A DNA stretch of 64,000 bases from a virus. The DNA lies in IMG/VR virus record IMGVR_UViG_3300045974_000806, positions 46,272-110,271 of that record. One strand, given 5' to 3'. Of the stretch, positions 3 through 64,000 are shown piece after piece. Position 1 is the first letter of the stretch, and every line of letters begins with the position of its first letter. A program made the position numbers and the translations under genes. The notes under the pieces were generated by a model, which saw nothing but the letters and a program-made list of their open reading frames with translations, was not told where the DNA came from and did not search any database.

Positions 3-662
3 GTGGTGCAGGCCACGGAACGCGCCGCGGTGGACTTCTTCCGGAAGCGCGTCCAGGCCCTTGAGTTCTGGAAGGTGGGCTTTGGGGCAAAGGGCCTGAA
101 GTCTTTCCTGCTGGACGGCAAGGTGGCGGAGATGGCCGCGGAGGCCAACCGGTGGGTGTCTTTGCTCACCGGCGGGACCACCTGGGTGGAGTTCAGCACG
201 CAGCGGCAGGTGGGCAAGGGGAAGGCCGCCAAGCTGGTGGAGGACTTCTCCGTGCGCGTGTTCCGGAGCAACCCGGATGGGACCGTCACGCAGCGCAACT
301 ACCGGTCATGGAGCGGCGGGGAGAAGTACCGCGTTGCGTTGGGCGTGGACTTTGGACTGGCCCGCCTGATCGCCAAGCGCGCCCGGTGCTCCTATGACGT
401 GTTGGTGCTGGATGAACTGTTCCAGCGCAGCCTGGACGCGACGGGCAAGGACGCGGTGGCGGAACTGCTGCAAGCCCTGGCCCTGGAAAAGAGTTCCATC
501 TTTGTGATTGACCATTCAGAGAACTTGAGTTACGCCAACCTCTTTGAAACCCGGATGGTGGTGCGGAAGATCGGCCGCCGGTCACGGGTGGTGGATGGGC
601 TGAACTACGGCGTGGAACTCGGACCCGACAATTCGCTCACGGCGCATCCGGCGTTCCCATGA
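3..662 (+). CDS. SbcC/Rad50/gp46-like recombination ATPase, C-terminal part (5' truncated)
   Basis: ABC signature SWSGGEKYRVAL, Walker B VLVLDE, H-loop IFVIDH. Confidence 0.85.
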   Translation: MVQATERAAVDFFRKRVQALEFWKVGFGAKGLKSFLLDGKVAEMAAEANRWVSLLTGGTTWVEFSTQRQVGKGKAAKLVEDFSVRVFRSNPDGTVTQRNYRSWSGGEKYRVALGVDFGLARLIAKRARCSYDVLVLDELFQRSLDATGKDAVAELLQALALEKSSIFVIDHSENLSYANLFETRMVVRKIGRRSRVVDGLNYGVELGPDNSLTAHPAFP

Positions 663-1198
663 GGTTTGTAATGTTTCCGGATGGCGTTGAGTGGCGCACA
701 GTCAGAGGGTTCCCAACCTACCGGGTGACGGCGGATGGTGAGGTGTGGAGCTACCACAAACACTCCGCTGGTGATGGCTGGAAACGATTGACAGCGTGTC
801 CGGATTCCGGAGGTTACATGGTGGTGGGACTGACGCGCGGTGGGCGGTACGGCGAGGCTTCCGGAAAGAAGACCACCTGCAAGGTGCACCGGTTGGTGTT
901 GCAGGCGTTCCGTGGTCCGTGCCCACGCGGTTACGAGGCGCGGCACTTTCCGGACTTTTCAAAGGACAACAACCGTTTGGACAACCTTGCTTGGGCGCCC
1001 CCGGAAGTGAACCAAGCGGAGCGAAAGCTGGCCAGGGGCGAACATTCAGGCCGGGCCAAGCTCACGGAGGCGGACGTGCGGGAGATGCGCCGGCTCCGGA
1101 ATGCCGGCATGCTTTTGCGGGAACTGGCGGAGAAGTTTGGCGTCAACACGCGGACCACATGGTGCGCGGTCACCGGCAAGACATGGAGTCATCTGTGA
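659..1198 (+). CDS. NUMOD4-HNH homing endonuclease
   Basis: EWRTVRGFPTYRVTADGEV (NUMOD4-like), VHRLVLQAF..RH..KDNNRLDNLAW, C-terminal HTH; ATGA overlap with upstream stop. Confidence 0.85.
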   Translation: MRFVMFPDGVEWRTVRGFPTYRVTADGEVWSYHKHSAGDGWKRLTACPDSGGYMVVGLTRGGRYGEASGKKTTCKVHRLVLQAFRGPCPRGYEARHFPDFSKDNNRLDNLAWAPPEVNQAERKLARGEHSGRAKLTEADVREMRRLRNAGMLLRELAEKFGVNTRTTWCAVTGKTWSHL

Positions 1199-1593
1199 AC
1201 AGCGGCATGAACAGGCAGCAACGCAGGGCGACGGCAGCACAGCATCCTACCTATTGGAGATTGACCCCGCTTTTCCAGGGTGAGGACGGCAAGCTGGTGG
1301 AGGGCGGCCAGAACTACGTCATCCACACCGCGCCCAACAACATGGTGGTGGTGCAGGTCCCCACGGATGCATGCACCGTGGAGATGGCCCAGCGCACGGA
1401 GCGGGAACTGATGGACAAGCTGCAACGGGACGTCATTGTGACGTCGGACAACGTGAAGTTCATGAAGGTGGAGCCGGTGGACCGCGCGGAGATCGCGGAA
1501 CTGCTCAAGGCGGACAACGGGGAGGGTGCCATGAAGGAAGCCATGCGCGAGTCCCCCACCCCACCCCAGGGGACGCCGGCGGTGCCCAAGTGA
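1195..1593 (+). CDS. hypothetical protein
   Basis: GTGA overlaps with both neighbours; typical codon bias. Confidence 0.6.
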   Translation: MNSGMNRQQRRATAAQHPTYWRLTPLFQGEDGKLVEGGQNYVIHTAPNNMVVVQVPTDACTVEMAQRTERELMDKLQRDVIVTSDNVKFMKVEPVDRAEIAELLKADNGEGAMKEAMRESPTPPQGTPAVPK

Positions 1594-3211: not shown

Positions 3212-3407
3212 CTTCCTGTGGGCGTCCATGGGTGAGGCCATGAACCGGGCCGCCGCCAAGGGCGCCACGCCGCGGGAACTCATGGTGGCGCTCCACGCGG
3301 TGTTCCTGCGCGCGGCTCACTCCCAGCCGGAGGCCACCCTGGACAGCACGCTGCAAACGGGAATCGAGTACCACCGCGCCGTCTACCTCGCTCCGGAAAG
3401 GGTCTAA
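3186..3407 (+). CDS. hypothetical protein
   Basis: ATG at 3186; fills the gap between coupled genes. Confidence 0.5.
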   Translation: MVRLTALDDFLWASMGEAMNRAAAKGATPRELMVALHAVFLRAAHSQPEATLDSTLQTGIEYHRAVYLAPERV

Positions 3408-3410
3408 CCC

Positions 3411-4532
3411 ATGCTGCTGCGTGAGGCGTTGTTGCGGGCGGCCCCGTTCGCCGCGGAAGAGGGACCCCTGGCCCACGTGGTGGTGGTGCCGGCGGTGTTC
3501 CTGGCCCATCACCCGGTGGAGTTCGTGGGCGCCCACGCGCTCCCCTTTGAGCCGGCCCGCGTCCAGGCCACCAACGGGACCACCGGTGTGATCATCCCGC
3601 TGGACCCGGGCACGGACGTCCCCTACGTGGCCATGCACGCCGGCGCGCTCAAGAAGGTGCTCCAACTGCTGCCCAAGGGCGCGGACTTCACGCTGGCGCC
3701 CCTGGGCCACAACGTGGCGGTGTCCTGGGACGGGACCGGCTGTTCCGTGGCCGCCCTTCCGGACCCTGGCGCCGCGTTGCCGCCCCTCAAGCTGCCCGGG
3801 CAGATGCGCGCGGTGCTCCCCCAGACGCTCCGGAGCATGCACCGCGTGCTGCATTGCGCCATTGAGGACCCGGACAGGCCGCTGCTGGGCAACGTCCACC
3901 TCACGCCCTGGTGGGCGGAGGCCACGGACCAAAACCGCGTGGCCAGGACCACGCATGCTGGACTGGTGCCGCACGGGATGCTGGTGCCCCCGGACCTGTT
4001 CCGGACATGGAAAGACCCGGGCGTCCTGGGCGTGTCCATGGCCACCGTGGGTGACACGCTGTGGGTGCAGATTGGAGAGGAACTGCGGCACGCCAAGGTG
4101 GGCCTGGACGCGGACTTCTTCAACCTTGACCCGTTGCTGGTGGAGGCCCCGTGCTTCCGCGCCCAGGTGCTGGGGCCGGCCATGGTGGATGCCATCAAGC
4201 GCGCGGCAAAGACGTCCCCCATCAACGTGCTTGAACTGGTGTTTGGCCCGGGCGCGTGCAGCGTGGCCGGCCTCACCGCGGACGGTGACCCCAGCGCCCG
4301 GGAGGTGATTCCCACCGTGGGGAACGCCGGGGACGTCACGGTGCGCATGACTCTCCGCGCCAGCTATGTGCGGGACGCGGTGACCGCGGCGGTGGACAAG
4401 GGCAAGGAGTCCATTGTCCTGAAGTACCTGCACGCCAGCGCGCCCCTGCGCGTGGAGCGCGGCCCGTTCTCTGAAATGGTTTGGCCCCTGTTCATTCCGG
4501 AAGTAGGAGGCACCAATGCAAAGGACGCTTGA
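3411..4532 (+). CDS. DNA polymerase III beta sliding-clamp-like protein
   Basis: 373 aa; QATNG and CAIEDPDRPLLGNVHL..EATDQNRVAR resemble DnaN motifs; C-terminal ASYVRDAV..APLRV..MVWPL. Confidence 0.55.
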   Translation: MLLREALLRAAPFAAEEGPLAHVVVVPAVFLAHHPVEFVGAHALPFEPARVQATNGTTGVIIPLDPGTDVPYVAMHAGALKKVLQLLPKGADFTLAPLGHNVAVSWDGTGCSVAALPDPGAALPPLKLPGQMRAVLPQTLRSMHRVLHCAIEDPDRPLLGNVHLTPWWAEATDQNRVARTTHAGLVPHGMLVPPDLFRTWKDPGVLGVSMATVGDTLWVQIGEELRHAKVGLDADFFNLDPLLVEAPCFRAQVLGPAMVDAIKRAAKTSPINVLELVFGPGACSVAGLTADGDPSAREVIPTVGNAGDVTVRMTLRASYVRDAVTAAVDKGKESIVLKYLHASAPLRVERGPFSEMVWPLFIPEVGGTNAKDA

Positions 4533-5034: not shown

Positions 5035-5129
5035 TCTTGTGCTTTCTGTCCTTGACGCAATCTTGCCGTATCTGGTAACCCTGACCAACCCGCGTGCGCG
5101 TGATGCGCATGCACCTTGAGGAGTGTCCT

Positions 5130-5996: not shown

Positions 5997-6008
5997 AAGG
6001 ACTCCGCC

Positions 6009-6646: not shown

Positions 6647-6770
6647 CGCGCCCGTGGAGGCCCTGGGGAATCCGCACGCACCCGTTCATCCGGTGGCTGT
6701 GGTTCGTGTTCATGGGCGTGCTGGGACTGGCCACGGGCGTGTTGCTTGACGCCCTGTTCCGGAGGTGGCC

Positions 6771-7409
6771 GTGAGTTCAACAAACAGGGGCGCCACGCGC
6801 CAGGAACTGGACTACTACCGCACGGACCCGGCGGAGATCGCCGTGTTCCTGCGGGAATGGTTCAACGACGTGCCCAGCGCGCGTGAGTTGCTGACCACGG
6901 GCACCGTGCTGGACCCATGCGCCGGCGGGAACGTCAAGCCCGTGCAGTGGGAATACAAGAAGGGCGAGGTGGCCACCATCCAGCCGTCCACGATGTCCTA
7001 TCCGGAGGCCATTGCGGCGGTGACGGGCAACGTGGTGGTGACCAATGACGTGCGCCCGGACTCGCCGGCCATGATGCACCATGACTTCCTGACGGGGGAC
7101 CTGGGCCTGTCAAAGCAGCCGGAGGTGATCATCACCAACCCACCGTTCAGCATTGCCCAGCAGGTGATTGAGAAGTCCCTGACCATGGTCCCCGTGGGCG
7201 GGCTGGTGGTGATGCTGCTGCGCTTGAACTTCTTTGGGAGTGACAAGCGGTTCCCGTTCTTCCAGGGGAAGATGCCCCAACGCGCCTACGTGCATCACCG
7301 GCGCATGGGCTTCACGCCCGACGGGAAGACGGACTCCATTGAGTACATGCACGCGGTGTGGCACCGCGCGCGCGTTCCCAGCCCCGCCACCACCCTGCGC
7401 GTCATTTGA
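6771..7409 (+). CDS. amino-DNA methyltransferase (N6-A/N4-C class)
   Basis: LDYYRT, VLDPCAG (SAM binding), IITNPPF (catalytic motif IV), MLLRLNF. Confidence 0.85.
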   Translation: MSSTNRGATRQELDYYRTDPAEIAVFLREWFNDVPSARELLTTGTVLDPCAGGNVKPVQWEYKKGEVATIQPSTMSYPEAIAAVTGNVVVTNDVRPDSPAMMHHDFLTGDLGLSKQPEVIITNPPFSIAQQVIEKSLTMVPVGGLVVMLLRLNFFGSDKRFPFFQGKMPQRAYVHHRRMGFTPDGKTDSIEYMHAVWHRARVPSPATTLRVI

Positions 7410-12150: not shown

Positions 12151-12177
12151 GACGTTTTGGCCCCTGCCCACTACCTA
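12147..12177 (+). promoter_or_regulatory. bipartite motif GTGAGACGTTT-N11-CACTACCTA, copy 1
   Basis: identical arms and spacing at 15333-15363; intergenic, upstream of an RBS. Confidence 0.55.
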
Positions 12178-12198
12178 TGGGAAAGGAGGCACAAAACC

Positions 12199-12771
12199 AT
12201 GCTGCTGAATGACTGCGAGATCGCGGCCCTGGCCGTTGAGCAAAAGATGATCACCCCGTTCTGCCCGGAGAACGTGTCCGAGAAGTACGGGAACAAGGTG
12301 GTGTCCTACGGCCTGTCATCCGCCGGCTATGACATCCGGCTGGCGGATGAGTTCGCCGTGTTCAGCCCAGTCCGGGTGACGGGCGCGGTGGACGTGAAGG
12401 CGTTCAACACGGACGCCCTGGTGCGCTTCAACGCGGATGTTTGTGACATCCCCGCGCACAGCTACGTGCTGTGCCGCAGCCTGGAAACATTCCGGATGCC
12501 GGAGGACGTGGCCGCCACGTGCGTGGGCAAGTCCACCTACGCACGCGTGGGATTGATCGTGAACGTCACGCCGCTTGAGCCTGGGTGGGAAGGCAACCTG
12601 ACGTTGGAGATCAGCAACAGCAGCCCGTGCCCCGTGCGCGTCTACGCCGGCGAGGGCATTGCCCAGTTGCTGTTCCACCGCCTGAGCGGCCGTCCGTCGG
12701 TCACGTACCGTGACAAGGGCGGCAAGTACATGGGCCAGCATGGCGTCACGCCCCCAAAGATGAAAGCCTGA
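12199..12771 (+). CDS. dcd: dCTP deaminase
   Basis: SYGLSSAGYDIRL, GKSTYARVGLIVNVTPLEPGWEGNLTLEISN, YAGEGIAQLLF. Confidence 0.93.
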   Translation: MLLNDCEIAALAVEQKMITPFCPENVSEKYGNKVVSYGLSSAGYDIRLADEFAVFSPVRVTGAVDVKAFNTDALVRFNADVCDIPAHSYVLCRSLETFRMPEDVAATCVGKSTYARVGLIVNVTPLEPGWEGNLTLEISNSSPCPVRVYAGEGIAQLLFHRLSGRPSVTYRDKGGKYMGQHGVTPPKMKA

Positions 12772-13798: not shown

Positions 13799-14124
13799 TG
13801 CCGGCGGCCCCGCACCTGCGTTCCAGCACGGCCAGGCAACTGCGCACGTCATGGCAGTTGCTGGCCCTGATAGCGGAGCGCCCGCGGACGGAGACGGAAC
13901 TGGCCAAGCACCTGGGGGTGCCCCGCACCCTGGTGTGGCGCCACGTCCAGGCCATGCGCCAAGCCGGCATGCCCTTGGAAGCCGTGCCGGACCCCGCCTG
14001 GGGAGGAAAGCGCCGGCTGTGGCGCCTGTCCGGAATCATTCCCTGGCGGGTTCCGGAACGCGGCCTGGACCCGGAGATCAAGCCTGATCCGGCCGAGTGC
14101 TTTTTGTCTTGCCTTCCGGAATGA
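13798..14124 (+). CDS. HTH DNA-binding protein
   Basis: TETELAKHLGVPRTLVWRHVQAMRQAGMPL. Confidence 0.7.
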   Translation: MPAAPHLRSSTARQLRTSWQLLALIAERPRTETELAKHLGVPRTLVWRHVQAMRQAGMPLEAVPDPAWGGKRRLWRLSGIIPWRVPERGLDPEIKPDPAECFLSCLPE

Positions 14125-24227: not shown

Positions 24228-24267
24228 TGCTTTTTGTATTGACTTCCGGAATGGCCGGCTCTAGCGT
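24228..24267 (+). promoter_or_regulatory. conserved sigma70-like promoter, copy 3
   Basis: TGCTTTTTGTA-TTGACT-N17-TAGCGT. Confidence 0.75.
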
Positions 24268-36524: not shown

Positions 36525-36755
36525 ATGAACGCCACCGCCACGCGCGCGCCGGACGGCTCCGCCCCCAAGTCCGGGGAATGGTGCCTCACGCCGGACAAGC
36601 AGCGCATTCAAGTTGTGTGTCCCATGTGCGTCCCGCCCTGCGTGGCTCACGTGGGCCTGGACCACGTGAGCCACATCAACATGGTGCTCAACGTGTGCGC
36701 CGGCTGTCAGCAGATCACCACCATCACCCTGGAAGGGTATCCGGTTCCGGAATGA
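36525..36755 (+). CDS. small Zn-ribbon protein
   Basis: CPMC...CAGC; RBS GAGG. Confidence 0.55.
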   Translation: MNATATRAPDGSAPKSGEWCLTPDKQRIQVVCPMCVPPCVAHVGLDHVSHINMVLNVCAGCQQITTITLEGYPVPE

Positions 36756-39700: not shown

Positions 39701-42514
39701 ATGCCGTCCTTTGAGCGCGAGGAAGAGACGGGCAAGCGCACCGTGGACCGCTGGTATCCCATCCACCGGTGGAAAGAGGACCGCGTGTGGAGCACCATCG
39801 CGGAGTCCGGCGTGCCGTTCCACAAGGCGTACAGCCTGGGCATGCGCCGGCTGTCCTGTGCCTTCTGCGTGTTTGCGCAGAAGGAAGACTTGATGATTGC
39901 CGCCAAGCACAACCCGGACCTGTTCCAGTCCTATCTGGACTTGGAGCAGCGCGTGGGGTCCGGCTTCACGGCGGACCTGTCCCTGGCGGACGTGGCGGAC
40001 GAGATCAAGCGCCGGCGCGCGGAGGGCATGGAACTCGACGAGACGGCCAAGTGGGTGAAGAAGGCCCTGGCCCAGTGGGAAGAGGTTCCGGAAGCACTCA
40101 TCAAGGCGGAGTTGGAGAAGGCGGAGCCCGACTTCCACGCCGCCATCCTGACCGCGGCGTTTGCCCGCCTGGGCGCAGACGCCCCGGTGGTGGGCGTCAC
40201 CATCGACTGGAAGACCACGGGCGCCTGCGTGCATCTCGACGACCACGCGGACAGCCACCACGTCCTGTGGATGCCGTATCCGGAAGCGTACAACGCGTCC
40301 ATGACCGTGGCGCAATTCGCCATGGACCACGGCCTGTCCCTGGAAGAGAACAACGCGCCCGCGCCCCTTCCGGAACTCGACGAGGACGCAATGGACAAGG
40401 CCGCGACGGATGCGGATGACCTGTCCAAGTCCGGCCCGTTCATTGGTCCCCAGGGTGGGCTCTGGGCAGACCCCAAGCACACCATCCACTGGGACCCGGC
40501 CCTCCACGGACCCGTGGCCGCCAACCGCAAGGTGGTGGTGCATCACGCCGGCGCGGAACTGCAAGGCAAGGCCAAGTTCGGCCACGGCTACCACGCGGAC
40601 CTGCATTACAAGGGGCAGAAGTACACCGTGAAGTTCAACCACGTGGACGGCAAGTTCTCCGGCGAGGTTCACCTCCCGGGCGGGCAGGTCCACCACGTGT
40701 CCAGCGCAAACCAAGCGGCGGACGCGGTGGTGCTCCACAGCGCCGGCCTGGACCACACGCTGAACAGCACGGAAGTCCGGAAGCGCGGGCTGGCCTATTC
40801 CGCGGACAGGTTGCTCAAGCCCACCAAGGACGTGCCGGCCGCCGCGGAGCCGGAGGCCACGCCGGAACCCGCCAAGGTGGAAGCGCCGGCGCACAAGCCG
40901 CTGCCCCTGCCCCCTGGCGTTCCGGAAACCACCATCCCGCCCCCGGGCACGCACCTGGGCACCATCCACCAAGGGGAACTGGACAACACCGTGGCGCCGG
41001 CACCTGCGCCCGCGGCGGAGCCGTCCCTGTTCGCCATGGACCCGCCCGCCCCACCGCCCCCGCCGCCCCCGCCGGCCAAGCCCGCGGACCCGCGGCGCAC
41101 CGCGCTGGGCGGAATCCTGGGCAAGAAGGCCCCGCTCTACATGGCCGCCACCAAGGGGACCATCCATGAGAAGCAGGCCGCCAAGTACGTGCTGGTGGAG
41201 GCGGAAAGCCTCATCCCCAGCCACCAGCCGCAGAAGGGCTTTGCGGAGCATCCGGCCTACCCCAAGGACGTCCAGACCCGCCCCTATGACCGCGACGAGG
41301 GGGACCAGATGAAGGTCCACGGCGCGGCCGGCGCCATGAACCCGGAGATCGTGTTCACGCCCAGCGTGGACGCCATGCAGGGTCCGCCTGTCATCACGGA
41401 GGACGGCGTGGTGTTGGGCGGCAACGGCCGGACCATGGCCCTGCAACTCCACTACGCGTCGAACGACCCCAAGGCCCAGGAAACCCGGGACTTCCTGGCG
41501 GAGAACGCCGGCACCTACGGCTTCACGGAGGCGGACGTCCGCTCCATGAAGAACCCGGTGGTGGTGCGGCAGGTGGAGACGCCCGACAAGAGCCAGCGCG
41601 CGCTGGCCCTGTTGGTCCACCGGTACAACGAGTCATCCAGCCAGGAACTGCAACCCCTGGCGGAGAGTGTGGCGGACGCCCGGCGCCTGGACGACACCAC
41701 CATGTCCGCCCTCACGGCCATTCCGGAGGACGGCACCCTCAAGGAGTTCCTGGGCTCCGCGGACTCCCGCCCGTTCGTTTCCGCGCTCCGGAACACGGGC
41801 ATCATCAACCAGCGCAACGCCACCAAGTACGTGGAGGGCGACGGGCTGTTGAACACCGCCGGCAAGAACCTTGCGGAGAGCATCCTGACCGCGGCCGTGC
41901 TTCCGGACGTCAAGCTGCTGGAAGACATTGACGGGCAGGTCCGGAACTCCCTCACGCGCGCGGCACCCTACGTCCTGGCCGCGGCGGCGGGGTCTGACCC
42001 GGACTGGGACCTGCGCCCGGCCCTCAAGGCAGCAGCGCGGGACCTCATCACCATCCGCTCCAAGCACCGGGCGGAGGTGGAGGCCGGCACCGTGCAGTCC
42101 GTGGCCAAGCGGGATGCAGAAGGCAAGCCGGTGAAGGTCAACGGCCAGACGGTCATGGTCAACAAGGAACCCACGGTGGACGAGTTCCTGAGCGGCGGTG
42201 CCCAGGGCGCGCTCATTCCGGAGTCCCACGCGGTGGACGGCGTGAAGCACGGGGAGGACGTGCTGCGCCTGCTGTTTGAACACGGGGACCGGCCCACCGT
42301 GCTGGCCCGGGTGATGTCCGGCTTCCTGGCGGAGGCCCGGAAGAACCCCAAGGGCCAGGGCGGCATGTTCGGGTCCCTGTCCGCCGGCGACCCCGGGGAC
42401 ACGCTGCGCAAGCTGGCCGCGGCGGTGGACAAGAGCCAGGACAGCCCGGAGGACCCGCGCCTGTGGCTGGACGCGGCCATTGACGCCCTGGAATCCGGAA
42501 TCCTTACGACCTGA
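36752..42514 (+). CDS. polyvalent protein (1920 aa): kinase-like, DarA-C-like, PAPS-reductase-like and ddrB-like ParB domains
   Basis: ATG at 36752 overlaps upstream TGA; FLGKGDDG..VVK..HD..LFDIG; RYGMSLRPPGLGALP; NSSAGKDSQAML..WPSSDARFCTSDHK..RLSCAFC; GPPVI..GGNGRTMAL; three tag copies. Confidence 0.8.
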   Translation: MKLRLEADPAELQTRGDVLLTSLSHAVEPHAPALAESLRKAIPERPPVVSKHRALRELTRDVQGLYADTVERMLAEVGQALDRRVEEMTTGSGDGSLMKGGPFIGPQGGLWADPKHTVHWDPDVHGSTHHPVAWAVPIHAKISGEENHVAMYHVTHKGNGNVMVSRHKDGQYGQTMPVESLKHFRNDLSAVVDLPPSGNPDIDAVTSGKAKFLGKGDDGMAFHVGDKVVKVSSTVPYHPDNPGHRSPEGAADMLRAQVDVGNHLADLGVPCIQRSEFIKHGDKGFQIKPWVRIPEKFTRAQLDKIQGAVIAMHEAGYAMHDQIQPGLDDKGEPVLFDIGKAAPLDKEGTQGRKWAIEDDVSHLQRLYEKSGVDFINRNTPQAKQDFDKVVAMSVPKKDGKRGGAGLYADLLTMQGKKLLRATEGTDEHIGHVVNFVEALRDVRDNHGPIHPKLLDEARKIIPEDWHDMLDGLDKEKAAKAGYADADDLHKSGPFIGPNGGLWADAKHTIHWDPAKHGPGTPVRYGMSLRPPGLGALPSGVKWDLVARGKHPASSFPGRPDLPVSEHHLHGEVELPGHLDPERAAAMDMVRISPAPVEAPPARAAKPEQLGLFSMPAKPPEPEDKPSSRRLLAIVDNDPALTQEQKLAPTAEVMKAILAKPASDPGQWKLPAGARFDPWEPKAVPEDAEWEHPDFGSGTGAAPWQQGDDWKPDFHKYDVLLVNSSAGKDSQAMLSHVVAQADAAGFPREKIVVVHCDLGRVEWEGTKELAIQQAQHYGLRVEVVQRTQNDLLEQIEERHGDLTQRQEDVGKLVAAGIRTWADLAAMDPATVQKHLGEGKGASKWEAQHRAEELVDKAQKKLEAAQEWEPLHNAHQAALAQHAEDMTAYEARVAANPKDKKNKPKAPKKPKGKPVFAADPVDFGKAIAWPSSDARFCTSDHKRAEVKKLMTRLADEHREKNGPKSKPRILNALGLRAQESDSREAMPSFEREEETGKRTVDRWYPIHRWKEDRVWSTIAESGVPFHKAYSLGMRRLSCAFCVFAQKEDLMIAAKHNPDLFQSYLDLEQRVGSGFTADLSLADVADEIKRRRAEGMELDETAKWVKKALAQWEEVPEALIKAELEKAEPDFHAAILTAAFARLGADAPVVGVTIDWKTTGACVHLDDHADSHHVLWMPYPEAYNASMTVAQFAMDHGLSLEENNAPAPLPELDEDAMDKAATDADDLSKSGPFIGPQGGLWADPKHTIHWDPALHGPVAANRKVVVHHAGAELQGKAKFGHGYHADLHYKGQKYTVKFNHVDGKFSGEVHLPGGQVHHVSSANQAADAVVLHSAGLDHTLNSTEVRKRGLAYSADRLLKPTKDVPAAAEPEATPEPAKVEAPAHKPLPLPPGVPETTIPPPGTHLGTIHQGELDNTVAPAPAPAAEPSLFAMDPPAPPPPPPPPAKPADPRRTALGGILGKKAPLYMAATKGTIHEKQAAKYVLVEAESLIPSHQPQKGFAEHPAYPKDVQTRPYDRDEGDQMKVHGAAGAMNPEIVFTPSVDAMQGPPVITEDGVVLGGNGRTMALQLHYASNDPKAQETRDFLAENAGTYGFTEADVRSMKNPVVVRQVETPDKSQRALALLVHRYNESSSQELQPLAESVADARRLDDTTMSALTAIPEDGTLKEFLGSADSRPFVSALRNTGIINQRNATKYVEGDGLLNTAGKNLAESILTAAVLPDVKLLEDIDGQVRNSLTRAAPYVLAAAAGSDPDWDLRPALKAAARDLITIRSKHRAEVEAGTVQSVAKRDAEGKPVKVNGQTVMVNKEPTVDEFLSGGAQGALIPESHAVDGVKHGEDVLRLLFEHGDRPTVLARVMSGFLAEARKNPKGQGGMFGSLSAGDPGDTLRKLAAAVDKSQDSPEDPRLWLDAAIDALESGILTT

Positions 42515-42525
42515 TCCGGAACCTT

Positions 42526-42565
42526 TGCTTTTTGTATTGCCTTCCGGAACCGGAGGAACTAAGTG
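42526..42565 (+). promoter_or_regulatory. conserved sigma70-like promoter, copy 4
   Basis: TGCTTTTTGTA-TTGCCT-N17-TAAGTG. Confidence 0.65.
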
Positions 42566-42619
42566 TTGGGCTCCACCAAGGACGCGCCTCAAAACAGGGC
42601 GCCCACCAAGGAGAACCCA

Positions 42620-44617
42620 ATGATCATCACCGCGAAGTGGAACAGCGCCTGCCCCGTTTGCACCAAGCTCATCTCCGCCGGCTCCGCCTGCGACTGGCAG
42701 AAGGGCAAGAAGGCCACCCACGTGGCGTGCGCCTCCGCCGAGGCCAAGGAAACCCTGGAAGCCTCACGCGCCAGCGCCCCGGCCGCCAACGCCACCATCC
42801 CGGTCCCTGAAGCCCCCGCCGGCCTGAACTACCTCCCCTTCCAGGCCGCGGGCATCCAGTTCGCGCTGGCCCGGTTCGCCGCCGGCAAGAACGGCGTGTT
42901 GGTGGCTGACGAGATGGGCCTGGGCAAGACCATCCAGGCCCTGGGCGTCTGCAACGGGCTGGCGCCGGCCGCGGAGAAGCCCCTCAATGTGCTGGTGGTG
43001 TGCCCCGCGTCCCTGCGCCTGAACTGGGCACGTGAGGCGTCCAAGTGGCTGGTGGGCCGCTGGGAGGTGACCACGTTCCTGAAGACGGACAAGGTGCTCA
43101 CCGCGCGCTCAGACGTCGCCATCCCGTACGCGCAGCACTCCCTGACCGTGGTGAATTACGACATCCTGAGCAAGGTGCCCTGTGTCCACGGGACGGAGTG
43201 GGACGTCCTGATTGTGGACGAAAGCCACTACGCGAAGAACGGGAAGGCCAAGCGGACCCAGTTCCTGGCGGCCATCAAGTCCACCCGCCGCGTGTTCCTG
43301 ACGGGCACGCCCATCTGCAACCGCCCCTCTGAACTGGTGTCCCTGCTCACCCAGATTGAGCCCAGCGAGTGGGGCGCCTTTGGGGAACAGAAGGCGTTCT
43401 TCAAGTTCGCCTACCGGTTCTGCAACCCCACCAAGGTGTGGACCGGCTTCAAGTACGTCACCGACTTCACCGGCGCATCCAACCTTGATGAACTGCAAAT
43501 CAAGCTGCGCACCGGCGTCATGGTCCGCCGCATGAAGGCGGACGTGCTGAAGGAACTGCCCCCCAAGACCCGGCAGGTGGTGGTGCTTCCGGAGAACGGC
43601 GCCAGCGCCGCGGTGAAGGCGGAGCGCGCCGCGTTTGGTGAGGACATGGCGGAGCGCCTGACCGCGGTGGCGGATGACGCGGACGCCTACGCGTCCCTAG
43701 TGGCGGAACTGACCTCCCCCAAGGCCCCGTCCTTTGAGGCCATCTCCCTGGCCCGGCAGGCCCTGGCCATTGAGAAGGTGCCCTACGTGGTGGACCACGT
43801 GCGGCAGGCCCTGGAAGACAACGACGGCCACAAGGTGGTGGTGATGGCGCATCACAAGGCGGTGGTGGACGCCCTGATGGCCGGCCTGGGCGAGTTCGGC
43901 GCGGTCAAGATCGACGGGTCCATGGGCGCGGAGGACCGCGAGGCCAGCGTGACCAAGTTCCAGACCGACGCGGCCACCCGCGTGTTCGTGGGCAGCATCA
44001 TGGCGGCCGGCGTGGGCATCACGCTCACCGCGGCCCACCACGTGGTGTTCGCGGAGTTGGACTGGGTTCCGGGCAACGTGTCCCAGGCAGAGGACCGCTG
44101 CCACCGCATTGGCCAGCATGACAACGTGCTGGTGCAGCACCTTGTGTTTGACGGCTCCCTGGACGCGCTGCTGGTGCAGACCATCCTGGGCAAGCAGGCC
44201 GTCATCTCCGCCGGCCTGGACACCCAGCAGGCCGTGGTGGATGCCCCCGCGGCCATGGTGGCCCGCAGCGCCGCCAAGCCGGCCCCCAAGACGGCGGAGG
44301 AAGTGGCCGCGGGCAGCGAGTTCACCGCGGAAGTCCGCGAGGCCACCATGCGCGGCCTCAAGTCCCTGTCCGCGGTGTGTGACGGCGCCCACGACGAGGA
44401 CGGGATGGGCTTCAACGGCCGTGACAGCGGCTTTGGCAAGTCCCTGGCCGCCCGCGCGTTCCTGACGGACAGCATGACCCGCGCGGCCATCAAGATGCTG
44501 CGCACCTACCGCAACACCCAGTTGTCCGCGGACGTCACCTCCGTCCTGGCCCCGTTCTGGCCCACCAAGGCCAAGGCGCCCAAGGCCGCCAAGGCGGACG
44601 CGCCCGCCGCGGAGTGA
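42620..44617 (+). CDS. SNF2-family (HARP/SMARCAL1-like) helicase
   Basis: ADEMGLGKTIQA, VVCPASLRLNW, IVDESH, LTGTPICN, AAGVGITLTAA, QAEDRCHRIGQ. Confidence 0.93.
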   Translation: MIITAKWNSACPVCTKLISAGSACDWQKGKKATHVACASAEAKETLEASRASAPAANATIPVPEAPAGLNYLPFQAAGIQFALARFAAGKNGVLVADEMGLGKTIQALGVCNGLAPAAEKPLNVLVVCPASLRLNWAREASKWLVGRWEVTTFLKTDKVLTARSDVAIPYAQHSLTVVNYDILSKVPCVHGTEWDVLIVDESHYAKNGKAKRTQFLAAIKSTRRVFLTGTPICNRPSELVSLLTQIEPSEWGAFGEQKAFFKFAYRFCNPTKVWTGFKYVTDFTGASNLDELQIKLRTGVMVRRMKADVLKELPPKTRQVVVLPENGASAAVKAERAAFGEDMAERLTAVADDADAYASLVAELTSPKAPSFEAISLARQALAIEKVPYVVDHVRQALEDNDGHKVVVMAHHKAVVDALMAGLGEFGAVKIDGSMGAEDREASVTKFQTDAATRVFVGSIMAAGVGITLTAAHHVVFAELDWVPGNVSQAEDRCHRIGQHDNVLVQHLVFDGSLDALLVQTILGKQAVISAGLDTQQAVVDAPAAMVARSAAKPAPKTAEEVAAGSEFTAEVREATMRGLKSLSAVCDGAHDEDGMGFNGRDSGFGKSLAARAFLTDSMTRAAIKMLRTYRNTQLSADVTSVLAPFWPTKAKAPKAAKADAPAAE

Positions 44618-44692: not shown

Positions 44693-47600
44693 ATGCCCTT
44701 GCTCACCGCGCGCCTCATCCAAGAGATCAAAGAGATCATCCGGAAGCACCACACGGCGTTCGTGGCCAACGCGTTTGGCAAGGACGTGCTCCCCCCGGAA
44801 GCGGTGGAGAAGCTGCGCGCGGCCGGCCTCATCAGCCAGACACAGGGCAGCAGCCTGGACGACGCCTACCTCTACGGGCAGGTGATGGCCCAGGTGGAGA
44901 AGCCGGAGGTGGCCGAGTGGTCCGCCGCCCAGGTCCGGTCCTACGCGGCCCAGAACCCCGTCCCCCTCACCCAGGTGGAGCGTGAAGCGGTGAAGACGGC
45001 CCGGCTCACCGGCGCGGAGTATTGCCAGGGCCTGGGCAACGTCATTGAGAAGCAGACCGGCCAGTTGCTGATCGAGGCGGACCACGCGCTGCGGGAAGAC
45101 CTGCAGGGGAAGATTGCGGACGCCACTGCGGTGAACATTGCCGCGCGCGGCACGGTGAAGGCGCTCAAGACGGACCTGGGCTGGGCCACGCAGGACTGGG
45201 CCAGGAACTTGGACCGCATTGCCATCACGGAGAAGCAGAACGCGATGCAGCAGGGTGTGGCGGATGGCATCCGGAAGCGCGTGGGGGAGGAAGCCCGCGT
45301 GTCCATCCGGTGCATGCCGGACGCCTGTGGCGCGTGCCGGGCGTTCAGCATTGGCCCGGACGGCGCCCCGCGCATCTACCGCCTGAGCCAGTTGGGGCCT
45401 CCGGGCTCCAACGTCCACCGCAAGCAGAACGCGTGGGTGGCGTGCGTGGGCGCGGTGCATCCGCACTGCCATCCCGCAGGGACCGTGGTTCAGACGCGGC
45501 GGGGGCGCATCCCGATTGAGACGGTGGTGCCGGGGGACATGGTGCTGACGCACCGGGGCCGGTGGATGCCTGTGAGCCACACGTGGGCGTCCCGGTATTC
45601 CGGAATCATGTTGCGCGTGAGGACGGAAAGCGCGGTGGTTGACGTGACTCCGGAGCATCCGTTGTTCCGCTCAAACGGAACCACCGCTTCCGCGCAAAAC
45701 CTCCAACAGGGTGACAACCTTTTGGACCTCCGCTTGGACGGAGAACCCGCGCCGTCGGTCCAAGGTGATGCGGACCACGGACCATCCGCGCCGCTTGAGC
45801 GCGCGCATCTTGCGCGCATCCTGTTTGGCCTTTCTCCCGCTGGCGTGCCAGTTGCCGCCGTCAACTTCCACGGCGAGCTTTTCCTGTGGGAAGGCAATGT
45901 CCACCAGAAACGTGCCCACAATGAAGCCTGGGAGCCCAGCCATTCCGACGGCGCAAAGCGCCTCATGGATGAGGCGTTCACCGGGACTTTTGAGTTGACC
46001 GCTTTGGGCTTGAAGCACCTTGAGGATGTGCCCACGGGAGTTCCGTTTGCCACGTCGGGCTGCATGCGCAGCGTTGGCGCGGGCACTACGTTCCTCCGGG
46101 CTGGACCGGGCGTTGCGGAGGCGTTGGGCTTCCCCCATCCCGCGGACGACGTGTCCAGCACGCTCCAAGCGGAGCACCACGGTCCCACGGGCCACCCCCA
46201 GCCGCCGGGCAATCTCCTGTACCGGGAGCAGTTGGTTGAGGTGCAAGTCTACAAGGACCGCTTCATCAATTTCGCGCCGGTACACCATGAGCCCTCCGTG
46301 GCTTTCAGTGCCCCGACGGTGCGGCAAGCTGCGTCCATTGTCAATGTCAGTTCAAACCAGTTTGATGGGTTGGTGTTCAACCTGACCGTTCCGGAAGATC
46401 ACAGTTACACGGCCAACGGGCTGGCCTCGCACAACTGCCAGTGCCAGTTGGTCCGCTTGCCCGTGGGCTGGGGATACAACGCGGAAGGGGAGATGGAGCC
46501 CGGCGGCCGGTTCGGCGTGGAGGTTCCGGAAGACGAGGAAGAGGCGGAGAAGGCGTTCCGGATGGAAGTGGAGCACCGGGAGGCCATGCAGAAGGGCGGC
46601 ACCCTGGACTTCCAGGGCATGCCCATCCGGATCGAACAGGACGCGGGGGAGGTGCGCCACTGGCGGGACCGTCACGGCGAGTCCGGCAGCACCACCATGC
46701 AACACGCCTACGGGGAGATTGTGGGCACCAAGGGCGCCGACGGTGACCCGGTGGACGTGTTCCTGGGCATGAACCCCAACGCGTCCCACGTCTACGTTGT
46801 CCACCAGCGGAAGAAGCGTGCGGACGGGACGTTTGGTGGCTTTGACGAGGACAAGGCGTTCCTGGGCTTCTCTTCTCCGGAAGAGGCCAAGGCCGCCTAC
46901 CTGTTGCACTACGACAACCCGGAGTTCTTTGGCGGGATGTCCGCGGTGGGCCTGGAAGACTTCCGCGCGCGCGTAGGCGCCCCCGGCCCCCTGGTGGGGG
47001 AACCGGTCCACACTCCGGAACTGACCTTCACCGTGGCGCTTCCGGAATCCGCGGCGGACATGGCCAAGGCCGCCGTCCGCCCGCCGGCCGTTCCGGACAT
47101 GACGTTCACCCTGGGCAAGGCGTTTGGCCAAGCCGCGGCCGGTCACAAGTACATCCGGCGCACGTACACCAAGGGCCATTGGGTCTATGAGTACGCGGAG
47201 CAGCACGGCGGGCACGTGAGTAGCCACGCCACGGACCCGGACAAGGTGATGCTCAAAGTGGAGCCCCACCACGCCAACGCCCTGGCGGCGCTGGCGGAGA
47301 TGCACGGCATCCATCCGGAACTGGTGCATGGGAGCACGCACGTCATGCTGCCCCTCACCCACGCCCAGGCTGATTCCATCCACCACGGTGAGACGGGCAC
47401 GCCCATCCCGGCCGCCATGCTGCCCACGCCGGCCCTGGCCACCGTGCTGCCCTTCCCCACGCCCGCTCAGGTGGCCCCCGTGGCTCCGGCACCCCTGGCC
47501 CCGACCGTGGCGCCTGCGCCGGCTCAGGTGGCTCCGCGGGCACGCCCGGCCCCGGCCCAGCAGATGGGCCTCTTTGACACCATGCCCGCGGCCCAGGCCG

Positions 47601-55983: not shown

Positions 55984-57420
55984 ATGCAGAACGTCAGTTG
56001 GCAGGACTACGCGGGCCTGGACGGCTTTGGCGGCGGGGCATTCGGCCCGGCCGAACTTGAAGCCATCAACAAGGCCCTCACCGTTGGGCAGGACATCAAC
56101 AACCCGGGCGCCGCGCCCGGCCAGGGATTCCCGCTCCGCGTGGAAAGCCTGGAAGCAACGCTGAAGAACCTCACCTTCCAGATGAGCCACATCCGGCTCT
56201 GGAAGGCCATCCCCAAGATTCCCGCCGCCAACACGGTGGAAGAGTTCAACGAGATCAGCAGCTACGGCGTGTCTGATCAGGGGTTCGTGGCAGAAGGCGC
56301 GCTCCCCAATGAGGATGACTCGACCTACGCGCGCCGCTACGCGGTCATCAAGTACCTGGGAACCACGCGGAAAGTCTCACACGTGGCCACCATGGTGCGC
56401 AGCGCCACGGGCAACATCATCGCCAATGAGACGGTGAACGGCACCATGCTGCTGCTCCGCATGGTGGAGTCCGCCCTCTTCTACGGCGACAGCGCCCTGT
56501 CGGACCTGCAATTTGACGGCTTCAGCAAGATGATTGCCAGCCGCTCCCCGGCGTCCAACGTGGTGGACCTCCGCGGCCAGCCCCTGGACGAGGACGTGTT
56601 GCAGGACATCAGCCTCATCCTGTCCGACGCGCCCAACTACGGCGTCCCCACGCACATGCACATGAACCCGCGCGTCAAGGCGGACTTGGTGAAGAGCATC
56701 TTCCCCAAGGGCCGCTATGACGTCTTCAACAAGCCCGATTCAGGCATGATTGGACTTGACTCGAAGGGCTACGTGAGCCCCGCCGGTGACGTTGTGTTTG
56801 AGCCCAACACGTTCATCACCGACGGTGGCAGCCCCACCGCGGCGGCCGTGGGTGATGCGTCCAAGATCCCCGGCTCCCCCACCATCTCCACCGCGGCCAC
56901 CAGCCCCGTGGATGCGCTGTCCAAGTTCGGCGCCGACGACGCGGGCAGCTACTGGTACTACATCGTGGCGCACAATGACTACGGGCACAGCGCGCCCGTG
57001 GCCGTCTCCGGCGCTGCCATCGCCATTGCGGCGGGTGACAAGATGACGTTTGGCGTGACCCCCGCCGCGGCCGGCGTGAAGTGGTTCCAACTGTACCGCA
57101 CCAAGATGGGCGTGGCGGCTCCGGCACTGAGTGACTACCGCTTGATTGCCAAGATCCCCAACGCGGCCGGCGCGGGCGCCACCACGGTGAACGACTACAA
57201 CGGCGTGCTGCCGTTCTGCACGGAAGCGTTCCTCTTCCAGCAGAACGTCCAGGCCCTGTCATTCAAGCAACTCTGCCCCATGATCAAGATCCCGCTGGCG
57301 ACGACGGACGCCAACATCCGCTGGATGCAGTTTTTGTATGGAACTCCGACGCTGTACGCGCCCGGAAAGGTGCTCAAGGTCATCAACATCGGCCGTGCGG
57401 CCGGCAGCATCAGCTACTGA
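55984..57420 (+). CDS. major capsid protein (SPO1/Twort-like)
   Basis: INKALTVG..PLRVESLEATLKNLTF..NTVEEF..FVAEG..FYGD..FDG; RBS AAGGAG. Confidence 0.9.
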   Translation: MQNVSWQDYAGLDGFGGGAFGPAELEAINKALTVGQDINNPGAAPGQGFPLRVESLEATLKNLTFQMSHIRLWKAIPKIPAANTVEEFNEISSYGVSDQGFVAEGALPNEDDSTYARRYAVIKYLGTTRKVSHVATMVRSATGNIIANETVNGTMLLLRMVESALFYGDSALSDLQFDGFSKMIASRSPASNVVDLRGQPLDEDVLQDISLILSDAPNYGVPTHMHMNPRVKADLVKSIFPKGRYDVFNKPDSGMIGLDSKGYVSPAGDVVFEPNTFITDGGSPTAAAVGDASKIPGSPTISTAATSPVDALSKFGADDAGSYWYYIVAHNDYGHSAPVAVSGAAIAIAAGDKMTFGVTPAAAGVKWFQLYRTKMGVAAPALSDYRLIAKIPNAAGAGATTVNDYNGVLPFCTEAFLFQQNVQALSFKQLCPMIKIPLATTDANIRWMQFLYGTPTLYAPGKVLKVINIGRAAGSISY

Positions 57421-57472
57421 CCTGAGCCGTGCTGCCCCGCCTGAAACGGGGTGAAGCCGCAGGGTGGTGGGC

Positions 57473-61448: not shown

Positions 61449-61721
61449 ATGGCGCTCCAACGCACCTTGACGTCAGCAAGCGGCATTGACCTCCCGGCCA
61501 GCTACCACCGCATCCTCTCGTTTTCGGGGACTGCTGACGTGGGGGTTGACGTCGTGGTGGGCGTCTACAAAGACTTTCCGGCGCGTCAGGCGGGCTTGGC
61601 TCCCGTCTACACGGAGAAGCACACGGTGCCCTACGACACGCAGGCCACCGGCACCATCGTGGGGAACCTGTACGTGGCGCTGCGGGAGCTTCCAGAATAC
61701 GCGGACGCCACCGACGCGTAA
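61449..61721 (+). CDS. small tail-associated protein
   Basis: follows fibre-like gene; ends LYVALRELPEYADATDA. Confidence 0.55.
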   Translation: MALQRTLTSASGIDLPASYHRILSFSGTADVGVDVVVGVYKDFPARQAGLAPVYTEKHTVPYDTQATGTIVGNLYVALRELPEYADATDA

Positions 61722-61731
61722 GAGGTGAGCG

Positions 61732-64000
61732 GTGTTTGGGTTCGGCGCATTCGGGCAGCTTGCGTTCGGTGAGCTTCCGGCTGCTGCCGGGCCTGCGACC
61801 TATTCCGTCTCCGTCCAAGACTCCCTGGCCACCAGCGATGCCCTGGACGGGGCGGCTGTCATTCCCGCGCCGCGCGCGGACAGTGCGGCAACGTCGGAAG
61901 TCCTGGGCGGCGGCCTGTCCGTCGCCGCGGCTACTACGGACAGCTTGGCCACGGGGGACACGCCTGCCGCGCTGCTGACGGCAGGCGGCGCGCGTGCTGA
62001 CTCCGCGGCAACGGGTGAAGTCTACGGGGTCCTGCTCACCGCCGGCGGGGCGTTGACGGACTCCCTGGCCACCGGGGAGGCCATCACCGGTGCGGCCGTC
62101 ACCGCCGGCGCCACGGTGGACAGCCTTGCCACCAGTGATGCCCTTGGCGGCGCCGCGGTCACCTCCGCAACGCGTGCGGACTCCCTGGCCACGGGTGAGG
62201 TGCTTGGGGCGCTGCTCACCGCGGCCGGCGCCACGCAGGACAGCGCGTCCACCAGTGATGCCCTTGGCGGCGCCGCGGTCACCACCGGCCCCACCACGGA
62301 CAGCCTGACCTCGGGTGACACCCCTGCCGCATCCATCGCGGCGGCTGGCGCACGTGCGGACTCCCTGACCACCGCGGAAGACTACGGGGTCACCACCGTG
62401 GGCGGTGCCCCGTCCTCCACCACGGACTCCCTGGCGACAGGTGACACGCCGGCGGCGTCCATCCTGGCGGCCGGTTCCGGAACTGATTCGATCACCACGG
62501 GGGACACGCCCGCGGCCACCATTGTGGCAGCCGGGGCCACCACGGACAGCCTGACCACCGGTGACACCCCCGCGGCCCTGCTGACGGCCGGCGGAGCGGC
62601 CCAGGACAGCCTGACCACCGGGGATGCGGCCACCGCCACCCTGGTAGCGGCCGGCGTGGCCCAGGACAGCCTGGGAACCACGGACGTCCAGGGCGGTGTG
62701 GTTGTCACGGCGGCCCAGGAAGCGGACTCCCTGGCGACCACGGACTCCCTGGGCGGCGCTGTGACGGCCCCAGGGGCCACTGCGGACTCCCTGACCACCG
62801 GTGACGTGGAAGCCGCGGTGCTCACCGCCGCGGGCGCGGCAGCGGACTCCCTGGCCACCACGGAAGCGCGGGGCAGCATCCTTGTGGCTGGCGGGTCCGC
62901 GCAGGACAGCGCCACCACGGGGGATGTCTACGGGGTCCTGCTGACGGCCGGCGGAGCGGCCCAGGACAGCCTGGGGGCGTCCGACGCGTTTGGGGGCGTG
63001 GTTGTCACGGCCGCCCAGGTTGCGGACAGCCTGACCACCACCAGCGCCCAGGATGCCACGGTGACCGTGGCGGGCATGAGCGCCACCGCGGACTCCCTGA
63101 CCACTGGGGACGTCTACGGGGCTGCGGTTGTCACGGCCGCGTCCGCCACGGACTCCCTGGCCACGGCCGAGTCCATTGGAGGGGCGGTTGTCACCGCGGC
63201 CACGCGGGCGGACAGCGCCACCACCGGTGACGCCACCACCGGGACCATTCTGGCTGGCGGCGCGCGGGCGGACAGCCTGACCACGGGGGACACGCCCGCG
63301 GCCGTCCTGACCGCGGCCGGTTCCGGAACTGACAGCCTGACCGCCGGCGATGCAGCCGGCGGAGCCGTGGTCACCACCGCCGCCCGGGCGGACTCTGCGG
63401 TCACGGGTGATGCCACCACCGGTGTGACGTCCGCGGCGGGGGACCGCACGGACTCCGCGGTCCTGGGCGATTCCGGAACCGCTGCTGTTGTGGCCGCCGG
63501 TTCCGGAACTGACAGCCTGACCGCCGGCGATGCAGCCGGTGGTGCGGCGGTGATGTCCGCGCCTGCTGGGGACTCCCTGACCTTGGGGGATGCCACCACC
63601 GTGGTGCTGGCCGCGGCGGGCGCTGGGGCAGACTCCCTGACCACCACGGACGCGTTTGTGGCGGACGTGGTGGAGGCCACGCAGTCCGTCACGGACAGCC
63701 TGACCTGCACGGACGGCTTTGACGCCTACGTGGTGACCGCGGCCCAGGTGGCGGACAGCCTGACCGTCACGGACGCCCGCACCTGGGTGAGTGGGACCGA
63801 GGACGTTGCGGACACCATGTCCGTCACGGATGGGACAGACGCCACCGTGTCCTACGCGGTGGCCACCGCGGACTCCCTGGCGGTGGGGGACCTGACCTGG
63901 GAAGCTGGTGCCATCACGTGGTGTGCCGTGGCCATGCCGGTGAGCCACCGCCCCACGGCCCCTCCCCAGCGCGTGAGCCACGCCCCCGACCCGCCCCCCC
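61732..64000 (+). CDS. long Ala/Thr/Gly-rich repeat protein (3' truncated; absent from the ORF track)
   Basis: GTG at 61732 after GAGG; reads MFGFGAFGQLAFGELP..; frame stays open to the window end. Confidence 0.8.
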   Translation, partial: MFGFGAFGQLAFGELPAAAGPATYSVSVQDSLATSDALDGAAVIPAPRADSAATSEVLGGGLSVAAATTDSLATGDTPAALLTAGGARADSAATGEVYGVLLTAGGALTDSLATGEAITGAAVTAGATVDSLATSDALGGAAVTSATRADSLATGEVLGALLTAAGATQDSASTSDALGGAAVTTGPTTDSLTSGDTPAASIAAAGARADSLTTAEDYGVTTVGGAPSSTTDSLATGDTPAASILAAGSGTDSITTGDTPAATIVAAGATTDSLTTGDTPAALLTAGGAAQDSLTTGDAATATLVAAGVAQDSLGTTDVQGGVVVTAAQEADSLATTDSLGGAVTAPGATADSLTTGDVEAAVLTAAGAAADSLATTEARGSILVAGGSAQDSATTGDVYGVLLTAGGAAQDSLGASDAFGGVVVTAAQVADSLTTTSAQDATVTVAGMSATADSLTTGDVYGAAVVTAASATDSLATAESIGGAVVTAATRADSATTGDATTGTILAGGARADSLTTGDTPAAVLTAAGSGTDSLTAGDAAGGAVVTTAARADSAVTGDATTGVTSAAGDRTDSAVLGDSGTAAVVAAGSGTDSLTAGDAAGGAAVMSAPAGDSLTLGDATTVVLAAAGAGADSLTTTDAFVADVVEATQSVTDSLTCTDGFDAYVVTAAQVADSLTVTDARTWVSGTEDVADTMSVTDGTDATVSYAVATADSLAVGDLTWEAGAITWCAVAMPVSHRPTAPPQRVSHAPDPPP
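61819..63890 (+). repeat. about 35 degenerate 60-nt (20-aa) tandem repeats with core DS[LA][AT]T[GS][DE]
   Basis: GACTCCCTG/GACAGCCTG recurs once per 60-nt line. Confidence 0.85.

Follow-up and report, generated by a model that had tools for sequence, protein, structure and literature searches.

The IMG/VR record IMGVR_UViG_3300045974_000806 (110,271 bp, 67.4% GC) represents a contractile-tailed phage, and its last 64 kb form the stretch of DNA that was analysed here as the window, to which all positions refer unless they are marked as genome positions. The phage encodes terminase, portal, protease/scaffold, SPO1-like capsid (36% identity), sheath and baseplate J proteins, a DNA metabolism of its own (PolA, DnaB, a RecA-like protein, an Mre11/Rad50-like pair, a clamp-like protein and a dCTP deaminase) and giant polyvalent head-region proteins that carry PAPS_reduct, ddrB-ParB, ART-PolyVal, LPD1 and pyrophosphatase domains together with an intein; no tRNA genes were found in it. 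Scattered through this genome is the octamer TTCCGGAA, the subject of this analysis. We find that TTCCGGAA belongs to the highly iterated palindromes, here carried by a phage, that its 6-bp core, TCCGGA, is type-II-like, and that a directional, density-dependent force acts on this 8-bp symmetric word.

The window holds 89 exact copies of TTCCGGAA between positions 39 and 63508, with a mean spacing of 721 bp and a largest gap of 2937 bp, while dinucleotide-preserving shuffles of the same DNA yield 0.49 ± 0.70 copies (maximum 3). The original prediction, made from the sequence by eye, had put the number at 85-90 with fewer than one expected and the spacing at about 700 bp; these figures are borne out, and a copy lies at each of the example positions it gave (39, 859, 1615, 9661, 16321, 28531, 37301 and 63321). 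Over the full 110,271 bp there are 155 copies against a zero-order expectation of 1.0, an enrichment of about 150-fold that corresponds to 1 copy per 709 bp. The reversed control word has 0 copies in the whole phage genome. The top three 8-mers of the genome are GTTCCGGA, CTTCCGGA and TTCCGGAA, and among palindromic octamers TTCCGGAA is by far the commonest, the runner-up having 63 copies against 17 expected.

Anatomy of the word and its independence from coding

The core of the word is itself enriched: TCCGGA occurs 205 times in the window (21.6 expected), in line with the many one-mismatch variants reported earlier, and 364 times in the genome (37 expected, 9.7-fold). The enrichment is symmetric and multiplicative, amounting to 2.2-fold for TCCGGA without a T/A flank, about 15-fold with one flank and 150-fold with both, and the two 7-mers are balanced (TCCGGAA 237, TTCCGGA 225). 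One-base variants at positions 1 and 8 lie 7-23-fold above expectation, and for the 18 variants at the inner positions 2-7, 30 copies were counted in all where 20 are expected. Because the near-misses sit at positions 1 and 8 and nothing departs from background in the flanks between ±1 and ±40 nt, TTCCGGAA is a bare 8-bp symmetric word, neither a repeat family nor a longer element. Such a symmetric, multiplicative anatomy with silent flanks is the pattern expected of a dimeric 8-bp site. The half-word CCGGAA was considered as the real unit and rejected, as it is near expectation when the preceding T is absent, and an extended or lattice-like flank pattern was likewise unsupported by the flank analysis.

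Gene calls were GC3-based and cover 80% of the genome, missing about 20% of the sequence. By these calls, 118 copies of TTCCGGAA lie inside genes and 37 outside (1.33 per kb genic versus 1.71 per kb non-genic), and the genic copies are read in all three frames, 29 as F-R-K/N (frame 0), 52 as [VLI]-P-E (frame 1) and 36 as x-S-G-Axx (frame 2), so that the reported occupancy of every frame and of intergenic DNA holds. Against the 118 genic copies observed, shuffling synonymous codons, which keeps proteins and codon usage, gave 8.9 ± 2.7 copies, shuffling codon order gave 1.5 ± 1.2, and a first-order codon (codon-pair) model gave 22.5 ± 5.5. The last figure is conservative because the pair frequencies of the model are already inflated by the word; codon-pair preservation had been named beforehand as the test that could refute the signal, and the enrichment persists under it. 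The enrichment of TTCCGGAA is a DNA-level signal and not a coding effect. We give negligible probability to a trivial cause, whether a recurring motif in the proteins, a family of repeats, biased codon pairs or an artefact of assembly: although the copies at 63321, 63471 and 63501 do fall in a repeated G-S-G-T-D coding unit near the window end, three frames and the spacers are occupied, the flanks are at background, every shuffle model falls short of the count, and copies sit in frame inside long open reading frames (ORFs).

The effect of the word on the proteins is considerable. Every permissive F-R-[K/N] site (29/29) is written with TTCCGGAA, as are 53 of the 69 [VLIF]-P-E sites and 36 of the 70 x-S-G-Axx sites, and TTCCGGA is carried by 65 of the 69 [VLIF]-P-E sites. 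This is done with rare codons, namely GTT (6% of Val), CTT (7% of Leu) and GGA (9% of Gly). The tripeptides themselves are in excess over within-protein residue shuffles (FR[KN] 7.2-fold, z = 12.5; [VLIF]PE 3.1-fold, z = 10; SG[IMTNK] 2.3-fold, z = 7), while none of eight control tripeptides, either reversed or chemically similar, departs significantly from expectation (0.72- to 1.91-fold; |z| ≤ 1.5). As the summed tripeptide excess of about 107 is near the number of genic copies, most copies seem to have needed an amino-acid change. The proteome is thus reshaped to accommodate TTCCGGAA, and the most constrained genes hold few copies (major capsid 0, DnaB 0, SNF2 helicase 0, PolA 1).

Regional density, promoter-like elements and palindrome avoidance

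Spacing regularity, which the original prediction had proposed as a check, is evident at the regional scale. Nearest-neighbour spacings are roughly exponential (coefficient of variation 0.88; Kolmogorov-Smirnov P = 0.50), and counts are under-dispersed, with a variance-to-mean ratio that falls from 0.52 in 2-kb bins to 0.25 in 5-kb bins and 0.11 in 10-kb bins. Successive 5-kb bins of the window contain 7, 8, 7, 8, 7, 6, 8, 7, 5, 8, 7 and 7 copies. The 5-kb ratio of 0.25 was reached in none of 5000 random placements (P < 0.0002), and 112 control 6-mers of like abundance had a median ratio of 1.14 and a minimum of 0.51. Successive spacings are anticorrelated (lag-1 r = -0.23), and shuffling their order lifts the ratio to 0.76 (P = 0.0012); long gaps are therefore offset by nearby copies. 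The word-free gap at 54618-57518 is among the three longest. Density is uniform over early and late regions, and in sampled TTCCGGAA-rich cellular genomes the ratio is near Poisson (0.68-1.29). The regional evenness of TTCCGGAA points to a density-dependent force.

A few copies stand in a promoter-like context. Four conserved 24-nt elements, TGCTTTTTGTMTTGNNTTCCGGAA, contain the word 2 nt past a TTG, where it adjoins a -35-like box of the form TTG(A/C/T)C (Table 1). The original prediction had described the word as abutting the -35 box of four conserved promoters; the conservation of the four elements stands, and their promoter function is a candidate role only. Of two further promoters that it had proposed, the one at about 54228 corresponds to the pair TTGACGGTT-TTCCGGAA at 54218, and the one at 57518 falls within a called ORF. 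For the four elements and the one at 54218, we infer a promoter function from sequence. No match to the 24-nt element was obtained in viral_contigs. Three of the four have CTGATCCGG(A) about 8 nt upstream, giving a second TCCGG(A) half-word per unit; the stretches upstream of the elements are 9625-9644, 14078-14097, 24208-24227 and 42506-42525.

These elements raise the question of whether the word is an operator or promoter element, that is, the site to which a transcription regulator binds, with the intragenic copies being secondary. Its fixed position by the -35-like box in the four elements would fit this, as would the further TTGACG-word pair upstream of the capsid operon. However, the promoter-like context holds for only about 5 of the 89 window copies, and about 95% are intragenic or without such context and show no flanking conservation; density does not differ between early and late regions, and the proteins have changed to accommodate the word, something that a promoter role would not call for. 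We consider this explanation improbable.

The abundance of TTCCGGAA is set against a genome from which palindromes have largely been purged. Half of the 64 hexamer palindromes (32/64) are absent from the genome, and 44 hexamer palindromes other than TCCGGA are absent or at ≤0.45-fold. GGGCCC has 0 copies against 153 expected, and AGCGCT, AGGCCT, CAGCTG, CGATCG, CTCGAG, GAGCTC, GGATCC, GTCGAC and TCGCGA are missing as well, as are all ANNNNT palindromes except ACCGGT, ACGCGT, ATGCAT and AATATT (1 copy). Among 6-mers with four G/C, 15 of 24 palindromes fall below 0.1-fold of expectation, compared to 5% of non-palindromes; GGTCTC and CTGGAG, both type IIS sites, are among the few non-palindromes that are missing. 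The phage evidently survives through restriction-site avoidance, to which TCCGGA is the lone extreme exception: its other palindromes show an extreme form of the avoidance seen in phages, whereas the core goes in the opposite direction. That TTCCGGAA is spared in a palindrome-purged genome indicates that it is tolerated or protected and not merely overlooked.

Alternatively, the word might be a footprint of restriction evasion, with CCGG-type sites being kept only beside hypermodified, shielding thymines. The SPO1-like phage group includes some members with modified thymine. In addition to the heavy purge, the SPO1-like capsid and the dCTP deaminase-like gene would agree with a thymine shield, and TGGCCA and TGATCA are also 3.6-3.7-fold above expectation. 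Yet CCGG is not purged at all (1692 versus 1370 expected; GCCGGC 399, CCCGGG 80), a one-sided T brings no excess (TCCGGC 80 versus 83 expected), and no thymidylate-synthase-like or modification gene was seen among the proteins scanned. Moreover, retention would yield a ratio of about 1 and not of 10-150, and would leave the rare-codon saturation and the tripeptide enrichment unexplained. We therefore regard the thymine shield as very improbable.

Comparison with known iterated words and with possible hosts

The closest known parallel is the cyanobacterial highly iterated palindrome HIP1, GCGATCGC. Near-misses of HIP1 are biased to the first and last position (Elhai, 2015; PMC4390886), and HIP1 and alternate HIPs occur about once per kb and together with cognate methyltransferases (PMC4390886). 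Both words are palindromic octamers with a 6-bp core of the methyltransferase type (PMC4390886; Xu et al., 2018, PMC5861425); HIP1, like TTCCGGAA, is strongly enriched (15-300-fold, about 1 per kb), occupies all frames and spacers without being explained by codon use, shows a first/last-base near-miss bias and has a non-random large-scale distribution. The analogy to HIP1 that the original prediction had drawn agrees with the shuffle-proof enrichment, the saturation, the bias of near-misses to positions 1 and 8 and the even density. The two also differ. Here the word is TTCCGGAA, it resides in a 110-kb lytic-type phage and not in a chromosome, and a single orphan NPPF methyltransferase is present as a candidate only, with none tied to the word. 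In the phage, permissive sites are very strongly saturated and the proteome is very strongly reshaped, and its copies are under-dispersed, in contrast to the periodicity of HIP1 at tens of kb. The phage word is thus of a known kind, and what is new is the different word, its presence in a phage, the stronger saturation and the even spread; a full-text literature search found no description of such an iterated word in a phage.

Chi sites, the regulatory octamers of RecBCD/AddAB that are enriched in some phages, offer a functional analogy only, in that they too are short over-represented words that are useful if one lies near any DNA end, and a palindrome would act both ways on linear phage DNA. 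The known Chi words lack this symmetry, are skewed between the strands and are over-represented to a far smaller degree. In contrast, TTCCGGAA is a perfect palindrome with balanced 7-mers and no strand skew.

Among cellular genomes, a triple-word scan of genome_contigs returned, among the matches listed, two Bacteroidota metagenome-assembled genomes (MAGs; OH_PBB_261 and UBA1952, in JAEWBT01 and DDEO01) and many local tandem arrays. These MAGs contain the same octamer at the same density as the phage, with 3692 copies in 2.9 Mb and 3349 in 2.7 Mb (1 per 785-806 bp). However, their unit is really the 10-bp TTTCCGGAAA, as 76% of copies have a T before them and 80% an A after them; near-misses in the MAGs show a flat profile, the GC content is 52-54% compared to 67% in the phage, and their spacing is near Poisson. 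No other carrier of the word was found among 40 family and 300 order representatives of the MAGs, and no relative of the phage capsid protein or methyltransferase was found in the MAGs themselves. Shine-Dalgarno cores (GGAGG, AGGAG, GAGGA) stand at 29% of longest-ORF starts in the phage versus 4% of background. Shine-Dalgarno use is not typical of Bacteroidota, so its frequency here argues against a Bacteroidota host. The two MAGs are unlikely to be hosts of the phage. TTA is almost unused in the phage (3 codons), and TCG and CGA are rare; together with the Shine-Dalgarno starts, this codon pattern hints at a high-GC, Shine-Dalgarno-using host.

Searches for such a host or for relatives gave few leads. 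Five high-GC genomes from the genome_contigs matches listed lack the dispersed word, and a scan of metagenome_contigs for GC-flanked pairs gave no dense high-GC contig among the matches listed. The triple-word scan of viral_contigs found only local clusters or arrays, the pattern being insensitive for genomes of about 100 kb, and a megablast of 12 kb against the phage collection had no match. Capsid, terminase and PolA searches led to one 35%-identical AT-rich phage, whose 93-kb record has 1 copy of the word, outside the stretch of it that was examined. The terminase is nearest to those of Bacteroides phages (31% identity), the portal protein matched viral clusters only, and the dCTP deaminase lies near Gemmatimonadota and Pseudomonadota clusters, a weak host lead.

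Local accumulations of TTCCGGAA were encountered in other genomes. The AT-rich, 111-kb record IMGVR_UViG_3300044959_000237 has about 45 copies in a terminal 3-kb array (~108400-111250) spaced about 24 nt apart, and about 17 more are dispersed; the array looks operator-like. Many actinomycetes (Streptomyces, Nonomuraea, Kitasatospora and Amycolatopsis) have one cluster of three copies in about 50 nt, at a spacing of about 21 nt (L015, L018, L034, L041, L049, L126 and others), which suggests an operator for a conserved regulator.

The question of the host bears directly on a neutral explanation, in which a methylation-directed or otherwise biased repair ratchet of the host turns near-misses into the host's word in whatever DNA is replicated in the cell, and the phage genome, having drifted towards this signature, carries the by-product. 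Elhai's repair ratchet predicts saturation near one site per kb (PMC4390886). Both this density and the near-miss bias at positions 1 and 8 are as such a ratchet predicts, and the two Bacteroidota MAGs provide the same octamer at the same density. Against it, these MAGs are unlikely hosts for the reasons given (GC content, the TTTCCGGAAA unit, flat near-misses and the Shine-Dalgarno use of the phage), and no high-GC genome or contig with the dispersed word was seen among the matches listed. Furthermore, the phage has PolA, DnaB, a RecA-like protein and the Mre11/Rad50-like pair, most copies needed amino-acid changes that involve several mutation types, and the phage spacing is far more even than that of the sampled cellular genomes. 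A simple Vsr-type C/T ratchet was rejected as the sole driver, since most copies needed transversions and amino-acid changes. Taken together, we consider a neutral host by-product somewhat unlikely, though the most serious of the rival explanations.

Readings of the signal and candidate partner genes

The reading that we tentatively place first is selection for a genome-wide recognition site of a putative, probably dimeric DNA protein. A directional force on DNA would have written TTCCGGAA into the genome and would keep it at about 1 per 700 bp everywhere, with selection favouring genomes in which no position is farther than about 1-3 kb from a copy, and the putative site-specific protein would read or mark the word genome-wide. 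Through a methylation-linked mark, the word might serve to tell self from non-self or one strand from the other, a role already put forward for the cyanobacterial HIPs; alternatively, it could be where a protein of the phage or of its host loads onto the DNA or protects it. Selection acting in the phage is favoured by the amino-acid cost, the evenness beyond that of the cellular genomes sampled, the phage's own replication and recombination genes and the exemption from the palindrome purge. The protein reader, the preference for selection over a repair ratchet and any link to methylation are what we infer from these patterns. Accordingly, of the selected HIP1-like signal that had originally been proposed, the DNA-level, HIP1-like part stands, and for its cause there are still two readings, a function, which we hold tentatively, and the less likely repair ratchet.

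Several points weigh against selection for such a site. A repair ratchet also saturates at about 1 per kb, so evenness alone is no proof of functional selection, and TTCCGGAA may be a host-wide word. Searches with capsid, terminase and polymerase in viral_contigs and metagenome_contigs gave no close relatives for a comparison of site conservation. No reader or writer was found, small ORFs having been only partly scanned against family libraries, and the sole methyltransferase found is small and of a family that is spread across phages of unrelated hosts.

A more specific version, which we think unlikely, is a phage-autonomous, spacing-controlled self-mark, in which a phage protein would load on, modify or protect the genome at TTCCGGAA, both on its entry and during its replication, and selection would keep one site in reach of each base. 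Candidates for this protein would be the orphan methyltransferase or a virion-associated polyvalent protein with ParB-like and PAPS-reductase-like (Dnd-like) modules. The positions of these genes and of the other features discussed are given in Table 1.

Table 1. Features of the window that bear on the distribution of TTCCGGAA or on its possible partners
Feature	Position	Strand	Remarks
Orphan compact amino-methyltransferase	6765..7409	+	214 aa; motif I DPCAGG, motif IV TNPPF; phrog_799; candidate writer
Promoter-like element, copy 1/4, TGCTTTTTGTCTTG-NN-TTCCGGAA	9645..9668	+	Word at the would-be -35/-10 spacer, judged from sequence only
dCTP deaminase-like gene	12157..12771	+	Relevant to the thymine-modification alternative only
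Promoter-like element, copy 2/4	14098..14121	+	Sequence conservation
Promoter-like element, copy 3/4	24228..24251	+	TTGAC immediately before the word
1978-aa polyvalent head-region protein	36578..42514	+	PAPS_reduct aa 1029-1097, ddrB-ParB aa 1532-1666
Promoter-like element, copy 4/4	42526..42549	+	21 nt upstream of the SNF2 helicase gene; GGAGGA ribosome-binding site follows
SNF2 helicase gene	42563..44617	+	Free of the 8-mer; one copy in each flanking spacer (42542, 44642), a local compensation
3021-aa polyvalent protein with intein	44693-53758	+	Pyrophosphatase, ART-PolyVal and LPD1 domains
Antisense ORF, HTH and DUF559/MTES_1575 (Vsr-fold) nuclease domain	45671..46288	-	Inside the intein of the 3021-aa protein
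Candidate promoter, TTGACGGTT-TTCCGGAA	54218..54234	+	Upstream of the protease/scaffold and major capsid genes; putative
Major capsid gene	55984..57420	+	Neither the 8-mer nor TCCGGA; within the word-free gap 54618-57518

The partners named in the original prediction, namely the methyltransferase and the ParB-like and PAPS-reductase-like domains, gained no support beyond their presence, and the latter two proved to be modules of one polyvalent head-region protein. We classify the methyltransferase as an amino-methyltransferase because of its DPCAGG and TNPPF motifs. NPPF is more typical of N6-adenine methyltransferases. Neither Pfam nor PDB gave a significant match to the protein (best E-values 0.13 and 0.16, respectively), its relatives are less than 40% identical and occur in phages of Clostridioides, Vibrio and Pseudoalteromonas, and nothing links it to TCCGGA. 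The 1978-aa polyvalent protein, whose gene carries 10 copies of TTCCGGAA, is a candidate reader or modifier by domain type only; on the same ground, its ParB-like and PAPS-reductase-like modules recall DndB and DndC. The only Vsr-fold candidate is the HTH-DUF559 ORF, which is more likely a homing endonuclease. A proposed 'DUF2924/H1-like reader' at genome 36445-37464 was dropped, as it has no Pfam or PHROG match.

What HIPs do has been an open question for some 30 years, and nearly all work on them has dealt with cyanobacterial chromosomes. The phage case sharpens the question, as permissive contexts are nearly full, proteins are altered, regional density is equalised and the word is the sole exception to the palindrome purge; the phage is also a small, recodable system for probing the role of an iterated palindrome. 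Beside PolA and DnaB, the phage with its SPO1-like capsid has a T4-style recombination set at genome 41651-46933 (L252:1651-2808, 3346-4317 and 4849-6933), made up of a RecA-like protein, an Mre11/SbcD-like phosphoesterase and a Rad50/SbcC-like ATPase.

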